Source of the DNA: Eledone cirrhosa
Taxonomy: Eukaryota
Direction: 5' to 3'
DNA: 64,000 bases
Assembly: GCA_964016885.1 (NCBI GenBank)
Contig: OZ024742.1
Coordinates: 99,076,001 to 99,140,000 of the forward strand
Part shown: in pieces, positions 5,251 through 63,637 of the stretch
How positions within the stretch are numbered: the first letter of the stretch is position 1
How the letters are laid out: each line of letters starts with the position of its first letter
Program-made: the position numbers and the translations under genes
Notes under the pieces: model-generated
What the model was told of the DNA's origin: nothing
What the model saw: the letters and a program-made list of their open reading frames with translations, nothing else
Database searches by the model: none

Positions 5251-8113
5251 AATTCCATATATAGTAAAAGTGATTTTCACAAGGATTGGTCAAAAGTTTG
5301 TTGTTGAGACACATGATTCTATCATGGCATTTTGTGGAAGGTAGGGGTAGGTGAACTTGCCAGTAGAAGAAAGATGGAGAGGGAGAGGAGGAAACCCAGT
5401 CGAGTGTTGAAAGTGACGACTACAGCAGATTCTAAGAAAAAGGTCGAAAAAAGTCTACTATAGAGGGGGACGGGGGAGGAAGTCGAAACAATAAGTAAAT
5501 CTATATGGAGTAAATATATAGAAAAATATAAAAATATAAAAAAATAAAAAAACACAATCATCAAATCTCTCACTGCTGGTACTGCTAAACTATAGAAAAG
5601 TTTAATAGGTGGGACGGAATACTAAATGGGAGACTGTAGTGAAAGAATTTTATGAGTTAGTAGTAATCGGCCAAATCTATCTTACAATAACAGGTCAACA
5701 AGTAGGGGGCCAAAATACTAAAAAAACTAATACGAAGTAATAATTCAGAAACCCGAAACTAATACGAAATATTAATTCAGAATCCCGAAAATGAATACTA
5801 ATACGATATATAAGAGTACTGCTACAATACATAAATTCTAATACAAACTACATAAATGCTCGTACGATATATATGAAAAACTAATACGAAAAATTTAATA
5901 CGAAAAATAATTCAGAACGCCCCCCCCCCCCCCCCCCATCCCCCAAAAAAGAAAATAATTACTGATATACGAGAAACTAAAGCAGAGATACCACTAAGAA
6001 ATCTAGAAATCACGGAAATGGGGCAGCAATCAGATAAGAAAGCAAGTATCTGGGGTCTAGCACATCTGCTATAAAAAGCGGAACCGGCCAATTCTATCAT
6101 AGAATAGGGGGCGGGTACTTAGGCTAAAGAGCACCGAACGGCTGCCTCGGGGGTGGGCGAGAAGGTGAAAAGAACGACGACAAAGAAGGAGATCTGGGGT
6201 GGAAGGACTAAGAAGGGATGGGGGGGAAGAAGGAAATATAGAGGAAACGATAAAAAATATATAAGAAAATCTTACGTCTACCTTTGTCAGCGGGGAATTA
6301 CCCATTACAAAGTCGGCAAGTGGGGTGTTTCAGCCCTAGTCTACCCCCCCCCCCCCCGCCGGGTCATTTTGTGGTTTGAGGGCGAGGTAAGTCCTACGCA
6401 ATCTGTGTTTGCATGCAGTTACCAGTTCGTCTTTCTTGTTTAGGAGTTGGTCCGTCGAAAACAACATTTATAATGTTTCCTCCGAGCATAAGTTACACGG
6501 ACGGCGTCCTCCCGTGTAAGAGTTGGCTCTGGACAGTAAGCTCCAAGTGAGATTATAGGTTATATTGTTATATTTGAGGTCCCAGATGTGACCCGAAAGT
6601 GTAGTGACGCGACGTTCAAGGAACTATCACGATTTTTCTCTTTCTTTCTCTCTATATATATGTTTATATATATAAATATATGTGTGCTTGTGTTTGTGTG
6701 TGTGCATGTGTGTATATATATATATATATATATATATATATATATATATGTATGTGTGTGTGTGTGTGTGTGTGTGTGTGTATGTGTGTGTGTGTGTGTG
6801 TGTGTGTGTGTGTGTGTGTGTGTGTGTGTGTGTTCAGTATAAATTGTTTTGGTGAAAGCAGGAGTAAACATTAGTAGACTGTAGTTACGATGGAGATTCA
6901 GTATAGAATAACATTAAAAGAAATGCTAAACGAAATAAATAACATCAGCATCTTTCTTAATTTATTCTTATATATATATATATATATATAAATATATAAC
7001 AAAGAAAGATGTGGTAAGATACCAGCTGAGTCATAACGCCCCAGAGTACTCGATACTTAGGGTAGTAGAGTGAGTAATAGAAAAGAGTCATGTAGATACA
7101 TACACACACATACACACACACATTTACACAACACACACACATATATATATATATATATATATATATATATATATATATATATATATATATATATATATAT
7201 ATATATATATATATTTAATATAGAATAGCTTCTACAGGACTAGAACTGTTTCATTCGTAAGAAATCCCCTGGAAGCTGGCTGTCGAAGTAAATGTGGTGG
7301 TATTTATATCTTTTCTTTTCCTACCACCAGAAAAGAAAAGATATAAATACCACCACATTTACTTGTATGTATGTATATGTGTATGCAGCATATTCGTAGA
7401 TATGATGTCAATGAACACAAGCTCAATATATTGCAAGAGGGCTTATTTATTATAAATACACATTCATACAATTACCAAGTATGCGAAACCATTGGTTTCG
7501 GTATCCAGTTATGGCCTCCTGTGTCTATAGGTAATTTATAGATTAATCTACGTAGACTTGTTAATTGTGAGAATCAGTGAGTTATTTGTAGCTTACCTTC
7601 CGATTCTAGCTTTTCCACATCATACATACAATTTTCATGATAAAAAATCCATGCGCTACAAACATCAATCTAGCCTCTCATAAAACAATTAGGGCCCAAA
7701 TATTTTACCTAAACTGATCCCCCTCCCCTTTAACATCTCTCCAAAACAAATAAAACCGGAAACAGATCCCGTTAATGTCAAAATGTCTTTAGACAAATTC
7801 CTCCGAGAAATTCCAGATAAATTTCCTAAACTCGGATATGTCTCCGAATACAATAACTTTTTATTTGAGTGAGCTATGGTGTCCAAAATATGACTGAAGT
7901 GTAAATCATGATTTGAAAACATCGGCCAGTCATGGTATTAAATTAGACATGGCCTTGGCCAATACAGGCCGAAACCTATCAGTTATCATCATTATATATA
8001 TATATATATATAGTAATAATAATAAATTTGAAGACTAAAATCCAAAGAGGGCTCGATAAGGATAAATATATATCAAATATATAAGAACCGTAGAGCAAAT
8101 TTTTATTAAAATA

Positions 8114-8189
8114 ACAGATTAAAGTTTAAACAAAGAATCGCTGCTTTCACCCTTAACGGGTTCTTCTGAAACTAACAAAGTCAATCTGT
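8114..8189 (-). ncRNA. type I hammerhead ribozyme family D (CAGAAGA core)
   Basis: Reverse-complement copy of 9101-9176 with a stem III substitution. Confidence 0.65.
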
Positions 8190-9100
8190 AAACGCAGAAG
8201 TGGATATTTCAAAAAACGTTGCAACCGGAGGAAGACAGGAATACGATACTTTGGTTCGTGGAAACGTTCCCTGGCAAAGAACGGGAAAAACGAATATAAT
8301 ACGTCATTAATAGGAGCGGTGAAAAACAATTACGCGCAAAGACAGAACCACGTTTATGGCATAAAAGAAGTCGTAGACTAATGTTCTCTGAGGTGGTTCA
8401 TAGAGACGTTCTCTGGCAATGAACGGAAAAAACGAAGATATTACGTCATATTTGGAGCGTGGAGAACAATTGCAAGCAAAGACAAAACCCCGTAAATGGT
8501 ATAGCTGAAGTTGTAGACTAAATTCTAACTAGGAAGCCGAATGAATCTCCGCTTCAGAGTTAAGAATAAAGTAAATAAATACAATACAGAGGTAATAGAA
8601 ATTAAATAAATGCATACACGCATGCAAATACGTACATACACAAACATACGCAAAACACTTGCTATAGGTATACAAAACCACGCACATATAAATATGTGTG
8701 TGTGTGTGTGTGTGTGTGCGTGTGCGTGTATACAAATAAATAAATAATTAAATAAACGTATATAAATAAATAAATACGTATATAACAAGCGCACACACAT
8801 GCCTACATCTAAATACAAAAATGTTAGGAGACGTAAGTCAACCAAAACATGAAGTACACATATAAACATCACCCAAACATACGTACGAACCTGCATACTC
8901 ACGCAGAATTAGTCTACGACTTCTTTTATACCATAAACGTGGTTCTGTCTTTGCGCGTAATTGTTTTTCACCGCTCCTATTAATGACGTATTATATTCGT
9001 TTTTCCCGTTCTTTGCCAGGGAACGTTTCCACGAACCAAAGTATCGTCTTCCTGTCTTCCTCCGGTTGCAACGTTTTTTGAAATATCCACTTCTGCGTTT

Positions 9101-9176
9101 ACAGATTGACTTTGTTAGTTTCAGAAGAACCCGTTAAGGGTGAAAGCAGCGATTCTTTGCTTAAACTTTAATCTGT
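9101..9176 (+). ncRNA. type I hammerhead ribozyme family D (CAGAAGA core)
   Basis: acagauuga cuuuguu aguuu-CAGAAGA-accc guuaa gggu-GAAA-gca gcgauucuu ugc-UU-aaacu uuaaucugu; extended stem I with internal bulge. Confidence 0.75.
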
Positions 9177-9318
9177 TATTTTAATAAATAAATATATATA
9201 TATATATATATATATATATATATAAAACGAAGGAAAAGTGGTAAGGAACCAGATGGAACATAACGCACCAGAGTACTCAATACTTAGTGTAGTAGAGTGG
9301 GTAATAGGAACGAGTAGG

Positions 9319-9414
9319 ATCCCGACGGCTGAGCTCAAGCCGTTTCGACGGCTAATTCTTGACTAAATGAAAATGTTTATCCTGGTAAATGAATGGCCGA
9401 ACTTCTCAGGGGGT
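9319..9414 (-). ncRNA. hammerhead-like motif family A
   Basis: Same motif as 5155-5250; a + strand degenerate copy lies at 11309-11403. Confidence 0.6.
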
Positions 9415-62457: not shown

Positions 62458-62520
62458 ATTTTATTATACATATTTCAAGGATACCATGTTAAATTATGGT
62501 ATGCTTTCATCAGACAAAAT
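62458..62520 (-). ncRNA. type I hammerhead ribozyme family H
   Basis: auuuugu-CUGAUGA-aag c auaccau aauuuaac augguau c cuu-GAAA-UAUGUA-UA-auaaaau. Confidence 0.85.
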
Positions 62521-62690
62521 ACAAAATATACCAGTTTTATAAATAAATATTGACATACCCTTACAAAATGCAACCGTTACTTTTGGAAGACATAGGGATA
62601 TATATATATATATATATATATATATATATATATATATATATATATATACGATATGAAATAAATGGAAACTATATTTATAAAACCATATTT

Positions 62691-62753
62691 ATTTCATTAT
62701 AAATATTTCAGGGATGCCAAATTAAAATATAGTATGCCTTCATCAGACAAAAT
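62691..62753 (-). ncRNA. type I hammerhead ribozyme family H
   Basis: auuuugu-CUGAUGA-aggcauacua...uggcaucccu-GAAA-UAUUUA-UA-augaaau; aag/cuu changed to agg/ccu (compensatory). Confidence 0.82.
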
Positions 62754-63094
62754 ACAATATATAAACAGTTTTATAAATAATGTTGACGTACCCTATTGGA
62801 TGCGACCATTATTTTTGGAAGCTGTCTATATATATATATATATATATATATATATATATATATATATATATATATATATATATATATATATATATATATA
62901 TATATATATATATATATAATTTAGTATATCTACTAACATATGCGTACAGATGTACGCTAATGCTAGCAAATACACAGGTTATGTCATAGTACCTAGGTGG
63001 TTCAATGCAGGAGGATGCAGAACAATAATATAAAAGACGTAAAATAAGAAAATTTAAAAAAATTAAAAAAATTAACTTACTTACTAAAATTTTC

Positions 63095-63176
63095 ACTCCA
63101 ACTAATTAGTTTCTGCAATGGGATAAAGACAGTTACGTAATCTAACTGTCGAGAATTCATTGCGTCATCAGGGAGT
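63095..63176 (-). ncRNA. type I hammerhead ribozyme family C
   Basis: acucc-CUGAUGA-c gcaaug [gacaguua..uaacuguc hairpin] cauugc a-GAAAC-UAAUUA-GUU-ggagu. Confidence 0.88.
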
Positions 63177-63637
63177 CTATTCTCAGCTAAGTCTCCAGGC
63201 AATGCGCGGACACTGGGGACTCATATAAAAATAATAATAATTCGGTAGATGGAACAGCTAGCGGGGACTGGATTCCATGCACTGAAAAGCTCGCTGTCAC
63301 TGGTCAAATGGCAGATTCTAAAGAATCAATCACGTGACACTGAGGCTAGTCGGTAAGAGTGGGATGGTAAGATGACAGAAGCCTACTATCACACCAATAA
63401 ATTAGTAGTGGTTTTGGCAGGTTTTCTCGACAAATAAGTAATTTGGAGATAAATATAGAGAATTTAGTATATCTACTAACATATGCGTACAGATGTACGC
63501 TAATGCTAGCAAATACACAGGTTATGTCATAGTACCTAGGTGGTTCAATGCAGGAGGATGCAGAACAATAATATAAAAGACGTAAAATAAGAAAATTTTA
63601 AAAAATTTAAAAAATTAACTTACTTACTAAAATTTTC

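Follow-up and report, generated by a model that had tools for sequence, protein, structure and literature searches.

A duplicated bulged hairpin bounding the tail of Hydra-clade Penelope-like elements, with a likely role in the start of reverse transcription

Several repeat families in one stretch of the Eledone cirrhosa genome carry the same small bulged hairpin in different sequences, which raises the question of what element the hairpin belongs to and what it does there. In this work, 64,000 nucleotides of GenBank assembly GCA_964016885.1 (contig OZ024742.1, positions 99,076,001 to 99,140,000, forward strand; hereafter the window) were analyzed together with other stretches of the same genome, marine metagenomes and published consensus sequences. 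The original prediction described a hairpin with a 2-nt bulge located 3' of hammerhead ribozymes, and proposed that it is a cis-acting RNA signal shared by Penelope-like elements (PLEs) and their non-coding parasites. Here, we report that the hairpin belongs to the Hydra clade of PLEs and is duplicated, the two copies (H1 and H2) defining both ends of the element tail, a feature that the original prediction had overlooked. Judged from sequence, the hairpins likely direct the enzyme to its starting points for copying, and this would account for the PLE tail, which has long lacked an explanation.

Occurrence and fold of the hairpin

All 11 hairpins previously listed in the window were found in place; ten of them fold alone into the described 2-nt-bulged structure, and the one at 54897 is a near variant. 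A strict descriptor gave 10 matches in the window (mean 1.25 and maximum 5 in 40 shuffles), comprising nine of the 11 listed sites and one at 7048. The sites at 8051 and 44128 miss the strict descriptor by an inner mismatch, yet they were recovered by a covariance model built from 47 instances, six of them taken from the window. This model recovers every listed site and adds matches at 7045, 3871, 5108, 23498, 55627, 55418, 3352, 63422 and 63968. Within the window alone, the matches represent only about 5-6 independent lineages and are suggestive. The genome is 3.0 Gb long and rich in (TA)n; in 380 kb of it picked blindly (38 stretches of 10 kb), 23 strict matches were found against 0-2 in 8 shuffles, and 57 matches to a loose pattern against 10-18 in shuffles. 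At least four more hairpin-bearing families were seen in such random stretches (L260, L270, L271, L281, L287, L290, L293, L295), with GUUC/GAAC and UA-bulge variants among the further families.

A protein profile of 40 homologues retrieved 78 loci from marine metagenomes; the median protein identity of the hairpin-bearing loci is 47%. The expected enrichment 3' of hammerheads on the same strand was borne out: within 200 nt downstream, the hairpin follows 29 of 34 distinct hammerheads of the metagenome Hydra elements, versus 1/24 upstream, 3/34 antisense and 1.25/34 shuffled. Several of the hammerheads that lack it belong to copies halting in (TA)n just ahead of the hairpin. When only the 3' letters were used as an anchor, a complementary 4-mer was present upstream at 79/99 sense and 7/49 antisense sites. 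Model matches fall on the strand of the open reading frame (ORF) in 84 of 91 cases; six of the seven off-strand matches lie in inverted hammerhead-bearing elements and one is unclear.

The consensus in Hydra-clade PLEs is GCUC-Y[inner stem-loop]R-UH-GAGC-ACU. Structural counts were made on 70 distinct hairpins from 44 loci, leaving out a motif match inside an ORF (L201). The first outer pair is G-C in 66 and U-A in 4 hairpins, its pairing being imposed by the search, and outer pairs 2-4 are invariant. Pair 5, which closes the bulge and was not imposed by the search, is C-G in 48, U-A in 21 and unpaired in 1 of the 70; on the protein tree, its 5' base, its 3' base and the pair changed 9, 10 and 10 times among 37 H1 copies. 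Pairs 6 and 7 are formed in 54/70 and 48/70 hairpins (28.6 and 28.5 after permutation), covariation at pairs 8 and 9 is weak or null, and the inner stem can shorten to one pair. The model-fitted alignment is 98% paired, with a covariation of 0.226 versus 0.072, values that lean towards the model and are compared with shuffles that ignore relatedness. More than one candidate pairing partner exists at 3/71 sites only. The bulge is UU in 42, UC in 18 and UA in 10 hairpins, and ACU follows the hairpin in 66/70, its CU having been part of the search anchor. Outer-stem variants in this genome include ACUC/GAGU, GUUC/GAAC and UCUC/GAGA. The proposal that both stems covary thus stands for the bulge-closing pair, the next two inner pairs and the first outer pair, and not for the near-invariant outer pairs 2-4; the bulge is kept at 2 nt throughout, with UA (10/70) besides the predicted UU and UC. 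The strand on which folding occurs is weakly indicated by 10 internal mismatches, which include five G-U and one A-C when read on the sense strand.

A chance origin of the hairpin was ruled out by the genome-stretch, metagenome and covariation counts, and there is next to no doubt that the motif exists and is conserved. Rfam covariance models returned nothing in the window at gathering thresholds and nothing in six Hydra loci at E<=1, a search of limited sensitivity that missed the minimal hammerheads there too. 

Among six published Hydra consensuses (coral, sea cucumber and sea louse among them; Craig et al. 2021, PMC8557442), examined by eye as given in its supplement, the hairpin is clear in three and a variant in one: there are two copies in Hydra-1_Ajap, a single copy in Hydra-2_Ajap and in Hydra-2_Amil, and variants in Hydra-1_Crog of the sea louse; the hairpin was not seen in the Hydra-1_Amil or Hydra-1_Obim consensus of that supplement. 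No linked hairpin was found at 30 GIY-YIG loci, 29 of them Neptune-like by eye; the three matches near such loci come from a family D insertion (one) and from unrelated sequence fitting the loose pattern (two). A motif shared in sequence by all PLEs was rejected, since the hairpin is missing from Neptune loci and the 22 supplement matches include none seen at a Naiad or Chlamys end. The hairpin signal is therefore one of the Hydra clade.

Two families linked to Neptune also have short and long ends (window 11416-11729 and 23726-24294; L345, L351, L361, L335, L338, L346), and their tail of 35-40 nt opens with a common motif, AACUYGUG(UG), which could be the Neptune counterpart of H1; no Neptune read-through copy turned up in which to check for a second copy of that motif. 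Three Neptune-linked insertions likewise have one short and one long end.

The hairpin pair and the ends of the elements

The hairpin is doubled: H1 follows the ribozyme at about 45 nt, and H2 immediately precedes the start codon. In the metagenome loci, H1 starts 33-53 nt from the hammerhead cut in 36/40 cases, H1 and H2 are 55-83 nt apart (n=21), and H2 precedes the ATG by 12-39 nt (n=20); in this genome, the H1-H2 interval is 78-166 nt. The hairpins and element ends of the window families are as follows.

14148..14181, minus strand: H1 of family P, the autonomous Hydra family; outer-stem probability 0.99 in context
14021..14184, minus strand: tail of family P, short end to long end; the long end is 5 nt before H2, which is uncopied here and seen in L259
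17765..20520, plus strand: inverted arm of the same P insertion, ending 3 nt ahead of the expected H1 start, the last template bases being repeated once
11855..11888, plus strand: H1 of a P-related subfamily; in read-through copies, the long end is followed by its H2 and ORF
9275..9298, minus strand: H1 of family A; further copies at 50982-51005 (plus), 55127-55150 (plus), 7048-7071 (minus) and 3874-3897 (minus)
5111-5134, minus strand: family A H1 with one broken pair
11410..11418, plus strand: family A, short end located 5 nt ahead of H1; further instances at 50846-50854 and 55036-55044 (both minus)
8051..8096, minus strand: H1 of family D; also 44128-44173 (minus), 54897-54942 (plus), 23508-23553 (plus) and a decayed copy at 958-1003 (minus)
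42382..42408, plus strand: H1 of family F
42110-42122 (minus), 42451-42463 (plus) and 42291-42326 (plus): short end, long end and ribozyme remnant of family F
63000..63023, minus strand: H1 of family C, a non-coding tandem family; second unit at 63543-63566
63423..63449, minus strand: H2 of family C, overlooked by the original prediction; second copy at 63965-63991
62918-62930: long end of the family C array
55627..55651, minus strand: H1-like hairpin of a family G-like repeat; a second at 55418-55443

Copies of each window family split into two end classes, short and long. H2 was predicted to lie just beyond the long end and was searched for with the end sequence plus only four letters. In read-through copies of A, F and the P relative it was found there, GCUCC occurring at a fixed distance and extending to full hairpins. 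For the P relative, 68/68 matches have the predicted H2 start; the other matches of family A are mostly microsatellites or overlaps. H2 was likewise seen for D, C, P and G.

The end offset was defined as the last identical base relative to the hairpin and was obtained by ungapped walks, gapped local alignment being too noisy. In P, the two ends lie at -3 (21/23) and -5 (13/14); in A, long ends lie at -3 (14/19) and short ends at -5 (13/13); in D, the values are -2 (11/16) and -3 (17/28); in F, -4 for both short (14/14) and long ends (about 20/21); and in C, short ends lie at -4 (14/17). Offsets of -11 and -12 obtained for the H2 of F were discarded as an artefact of polymorphic anchors. In other animals, nine ends were scored (14 rows less four from the in-ORF match in L201 and one with diverged homologues), and seven of them have an offset of -3 or -4, a (TA)n flank being absent from four of the seven. 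Most ends halt in a UAU-type register that is also present in the (TA)n flank. As the ends mostly sit 2-5 nt 5' of H1 or H2, the PLE tail is the H1-H2 interval. The idea of a cis-acting signal for reverse transcriptase (RT) binding or initiation is thus strongly supported by position in five families and in other animals, and from this position we infer binding. In L184 (5367-5452, minus strand), an identical 11-nt stretch precedes both H1 and H2, as if the register and the hairpin had been duplicated as one unit.

The two end classes are combined in a regular way. Among inverted insertions of six families bounded by microsatellites, a short end is combined with a long one in 74 of 75; the remaining one is long-long, and none is short-short. 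A looser count, with 26 short-short cases in A and 4 long-long in C, resulted from loose anchors and internal tandem copies and is superseded. In family P, 20 insertions were collected (17 from the protein search, 3 seen earlier), and all 16 scorable ones have one short and one long end; of the four unscorable insertions, three agree by alignment coordinates and one runs off its stretch. Previously, the tail was reported to be often on one end only (PMC8557442; PMC3846280); the one-end-each pattern is near-obligate here and goes beyond that "often".

The last template bases are repeated at 7/28 short ends of P, and (TC)n runs of 5-18 units occur at 11/20 long ends of C. Primer realignment at initiation gives junction repeats in long interspersed nuclear elements (LINEs) as well as telomerase, and the repeats seen here fit repeated priming or primer realignment. 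Some P arms read through a tandem junction and stop 20-730 nt upstream of H1 (L372, L373, L380, L381, L383-L387), which shows that templates can be longer than one unit; in L383, the arm ends a few bases at most from where the hammerhead would cut.

Carrier elements and their ribozymes

The remaining features of the window are the coding regions and ribozymes of these families and a dispersed repeat.

15718..17765, minus strand: Hydra RT-endonuclease ORF of family P, 5'-truncated and frameshifted, 99% identical to the intact 819-aa ORF of L259
10546..11091, minus strand: fragment of an RT within a family A insertion; identity to the intact 717-aa A protein 88%
14228..14274, minus strand: type I hammerhead of family P with the U4C core CCGAAGA; H1 lies about 50 nt 3' of the cut site
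8123..8173, minus strand: hammerhead-like fold of family D with a U4A core; also 9117-9167 (plus), 44200-44250 (minus) and 20726-20776 (minus)
63095..63176, minus strand: canonical type I hammerhead of family C; also 63638-63719
62463-62516 and 62696-62749, minus strand: hammerheads of family G with short ends
2148-2341, 20935-21051, 30610-30946, 41019-41243, 58042-58241 and 61700-62260: a repeat resembling a short interspersed nuclear element (SINE)

The intact ORFs of P (819 aa, L259) and A (717 aa, L328) are single frames with an RT domain, containing YRDD, ahead of a C-terminal GIY-like motif. RWR, a variant of RWK, at residue 37-38 and DKT rather than DKG are present in P, A and F; P and A have a CxCX5C linker as well as CxxC and CxH around conserved E and N residues, and the CCHH motif is missing from their proteins by eye, as compared with Neptune-type loci. 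Insertions go into (TA)n. Because these features match those defining the clade in PMC8557442, P and A are assigned to Hydra. Pfam did not recognize the P ORF. Family P is young, with 150 scored matches at 99-100% identity, many in open frames of 832 codons. Its protein contains long asparagine-rich insertions between the RT and the endonuclease (window 15900-16750; L259); similar insertions were reported in rotifer Penelope ORFs (PMC3846280).

In read-through copies, a Hydra ORF is located 3' of H2 in P, the P relative, A, D and F, and the window hairpins of these five are therefore the ends of coding families. The view of the non-P families as non-coding parasites holds for C, whose 543-bp tandem units have a longest ATG-opened frame of 35 codons, and fails for A, D and the family at 42382 (F), whose read-through copies reach Hydra ORFs. 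Similarly, "sequence-unrelated" is apt for the 3' regions, which share no alignable sequence beyond short AT-rich matches, and not for the proteins of P, A, D and F, which are related at about 39-54% identity.

The ribozymes of this genome are divergent. The canonical hammerhead pattern matched only family G, and relaxed patterns were used for the rest. The core is CCGAAGA (U4C) in 31/31 P copies, and U4C in the P relative too; it is CAGAAGA (U4A) in 33/34 D copies and canonical in 41/43 C copies, in family G and in the metagenome Hydra relatives. In the intact 3' regions of A and F no hammerhead core was found even at two mismatches, save one strained match in A. Most hammerheads in this genome have thus an altered or lost core, and the description of the hairpin as lying downstream of hammerheads is right by position, with a canonical core, among the listed families, in C only. 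Both hairpins are kept in C, P and D, and also in A and F, which lack a ribozyme core. The hairpin was accordingly rejected as part of the ribozyme fold, and the signal is independent of an intact core. Young, abundant Hydra families have a fixed non-canonical core or none (14228-14274, 8123-8173, 42291-42326; L328); either the U4C and U4A cores may still cleave or the ribozyme may be dispensable in vivo.

Three other repeats of the window were noted. A tandem 490-bp family (window 56150-57400 and 12020-13750) has a canonical minimal hammerhead and (TA)n ends without the Hydra hairpin, and probably represents a retrozyme whose mobility depends on a PLE clade other than Hydra. Window positions 46446-50032 (plus strand) hold the decayed remains of a LINE-type element, with pieces of an APE endonuclease and of an RT; it has no relation to the hairpin. 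The SINE-looking repeat, dispersed and about 200 bp long, interrupts family D copies.

Priming at the hairpins and comparison with known systems

The reading that we consider probable is that each hairpin seats one RT, that the register 2-5 nt upstream pairs with a cut DNA end, that H1 and H2 serve opposite strands, and that one RNA primes both ends of the insertion. A protein, probably as a dimer, would bind a longer-than-unit or circular sense transcript at H1 and H2, and both strands of an AT-rich target would be cleaved by the endonucleases. The 3' ends so released would each pair with the 3-5 nt register located 5' of one hairpin and prime cDNA synthesis towards the 5' end of the RNA. With priming 5' of each hairpin, neither hairpin would be copied by its own RT, and the H2-primed arm would carry H1 and the spacer, that is, the tail, which the H1-primed arm would lack. 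The two cDNAs would then be joined head to head. The non-coding family C, which keeps both hairpins, would be moved in trans by a Hydra protein. In this scheme, we infer binding, strand use and the dimer.

Several observations weigh against the scheme. Long ends of C peak at -7 (11/18), blurred by TC repeats; two of the nine ends in other animals score -8; and a junction within (TA)n can be placed no more precisely than the run of shared bases allows. Outer pairs 2-4 scarcely vary and so provide no covariation evidence. The hairpins are weak, with folding z-scores from -2.6 to +0.3, one family A copy prefers another fold, and the in-context probability of the outer stem ranges from 0.99 (P) down to 0 (H2 of F and of C, in the copies used); since the fold is weak both alone and in context, it probably needs protein. 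Free energy favours the antisense strand in 40/70 hairpins. The dimer step rests on a structure prediction in PMC11167929, and the biochemical precedent from the same paper concerns another clade and another sequence, with no homology between start site and target.

Four other explanations were weighed. An unlikely one, though the strongest of the four, is that the motif acts in DNA, as a duplex or single-stranded hairpin recognized by the GIY-YIG endonuclease, which would cut a longer cDNA or donor just 5' of H1 and H2 and thereby create the two ends. Craig et al. ascribed the tail most likely to endonuclease-mediated resolution (PMC8557442), and the D. virilis tail is needed for endonuclease recognition, as cited in PMC11167929. 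The invariant outer-stem letters and ACU do resemble a protein recognition sequence, and the evidence on the folding strand is weak. However, the compensatory changes, which span a variable loop, speak for the fold of a single strand rather than duplex reading, the repeats of template bases at junctions fit priming rather than cutting and ligation, and both Poseidon ends were mapped as RT starts (PMC11167929).

It is more doubtful still that the template is an antisense RNA, self-primed at the central palindrome, on which the hairpin complement stops the RT before H1 or H2 in the manner of the telomerase template boundary element. Antisense self-priming was proposed for head-to-head PLE insertions (PMC3846280), the complement folds about as well as the hairpin, and the end offsets are equally compatible with a stop. 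On the other hand, G-U outnumbers A-C by 5 to 1 on the sense strand, a weak argument, and the junction repeats fit starts; hammerhead, ORF and motif are on the same strand, and the Poseidon protein is active on sense RNA (PMC11167929). Antisense templating also leaves unexplained why one arm stops at H1 and the other at H2 in 74/75 insertions.

This last regularity bears equally on a third explanation, to which we give similarly little credence: both hairpins would set starts, but the ends would arise from different RNAs or one after the other, in either order, rather than from one dimer on one RNA. Independent choice predicts many short-short and long-long insertions, while 0 and 1 of 75 were seen, so that the order would have to follow a strict rule. 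This explanation gains from the fact that genomes record no more than the outcome of integration, from the independent truncation of the arms and from the ability of either arm to read through a tandem junction. Finally, it is very improbable that the hairpins serve the ribozyme, RNA stability or translation, with their place at the element ends as a by-product: their fixed distances to the hammerhead cut (33-53 nt, 36/40) and to the ATG (12-39 nt) speak for such a role, but they are kept in A and F without a ribozyme core and in non-coding C, and ends tracking the hairpins over spacings of 55-166 nt would go unexplained.

One RNA priming both ends from two hairpins may be a particular case of something broader. 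Endonuclease-bearing PLEs might all integrate by programmed twin priming, in which tandem RNA handles seat an RT dimer on one transcript and fill both sides of a double-strand break; H1/H2 would be one clade's version of a PLE-wide code for which Neptune and Poseidon use other motifs, and a living model of telomerase-like RT alignment, the adjacent helix aligning a short internal template and realignment adding repeats. We regard this generalization as tentative and, as a whole, rather doubtful.

These results bear on PLE template choice, the two internal starts, and the origin of the tail and of inverted insertions in the retroelements closest to telomerase. The analysis offers a defined element of 20-40 nt, a start-site rule and a one-end-each rule, all ready for assay, and the very active P family, with many near-identical intact ORFs, provides natural material. 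The hairpin pair can serve to mark the clade when element ends are annotated and when non-coding retrozymes are matched to the elements that drive them, and a short movable handle that sets the priming position is of interest for RNA-templated insertion tools.

In stringent LINEs and their partner SINEs (3' stem-loops), and in the R2 3' untranslated region, an RT-bound RNA structure fixes the priming position. In LINEs, this structure is copied, being placed 5' of a start at the RNA terminus; the hairpin described here is doubled and would lie 3' of an internal start, where its own RT would not copy it. In L1 twin priming, two primers on one RNA lead to an inversion, occasionally and at a variable second site, whereas twin priming in Hydra would be the rule and at a fixed site. 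The hairpin can also be likened to the telomerase RNA helices beside the template and to hepadnaviral epsilon, with a small bulge in a protein-bound stem.

The window families resemble the Hydra clade of Craig et al. (PMC8557442) in domain order, in the RWR, DKT, CxCX5C, CxxC and CxH motifs, in (TA)n targets, in hammerhead position, and in inverted and tandem insertions. They differ in the tail, 30-40 bp in that paper and here 55-166 nt, bounded by two copies of one RNA element, and in the hammerhead, whose canonical form was called universal in Hydra and is lacking in several families here. The hairpin is not mentioned in the accessible main text and supplement of that paper. More generally, no description of the element was found in the open literature, PMC4209133, PMC13282606, PMC5737381 and PMC6765202 included; subscription papers and Repbase notes are outside this coverage, and a prior mention is possible.

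The closest biochemical system is the Poseidon PAc protein (Frangieh et al. 2024, PMC11167929), which cuts and extends both strands and is predicted to dimerize; two internal RNA starts bound the tail, as probably in Hydra here, RNA 3' of the starts is required, and ribozyme cleavage is not needed. PAc represents a different clade and sequence, with an "AC-rich stem loop" for which the accessible text defines no conserved or duplicated structure, and its starts lie inside the ORF without target homology, whereas the Hydra ends are in the 5' untranslated region at a 3-5 nt register shared with (TA)n. In the Poseidon RNA around the starts, GGCC...GAAAG occurs twice, about 37 nt apart by eye and near the tail length (PMC11167929 supplement); it may be a doubled signal of that clade, to judge by the letters.

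Family C resembles the non-long-terminal-repeat retrozymes (PMC7229834; bioRxiv 10.64898/2026.07.22.740005) in its tandem units, which are non-coding and contain a canonical type I hammerhead. PLE-driven mobility was proposed for retrozymes in both sources, whose accessible text names no common cis signal and no hairpin. H1 and H2 of family C supply a candidate for this signal and point to the Hydra clade. Stem-loops recognized by RTs were already known; new is a doubled handle, placed 3' of internal starts, that likely fixes both ends of the element.

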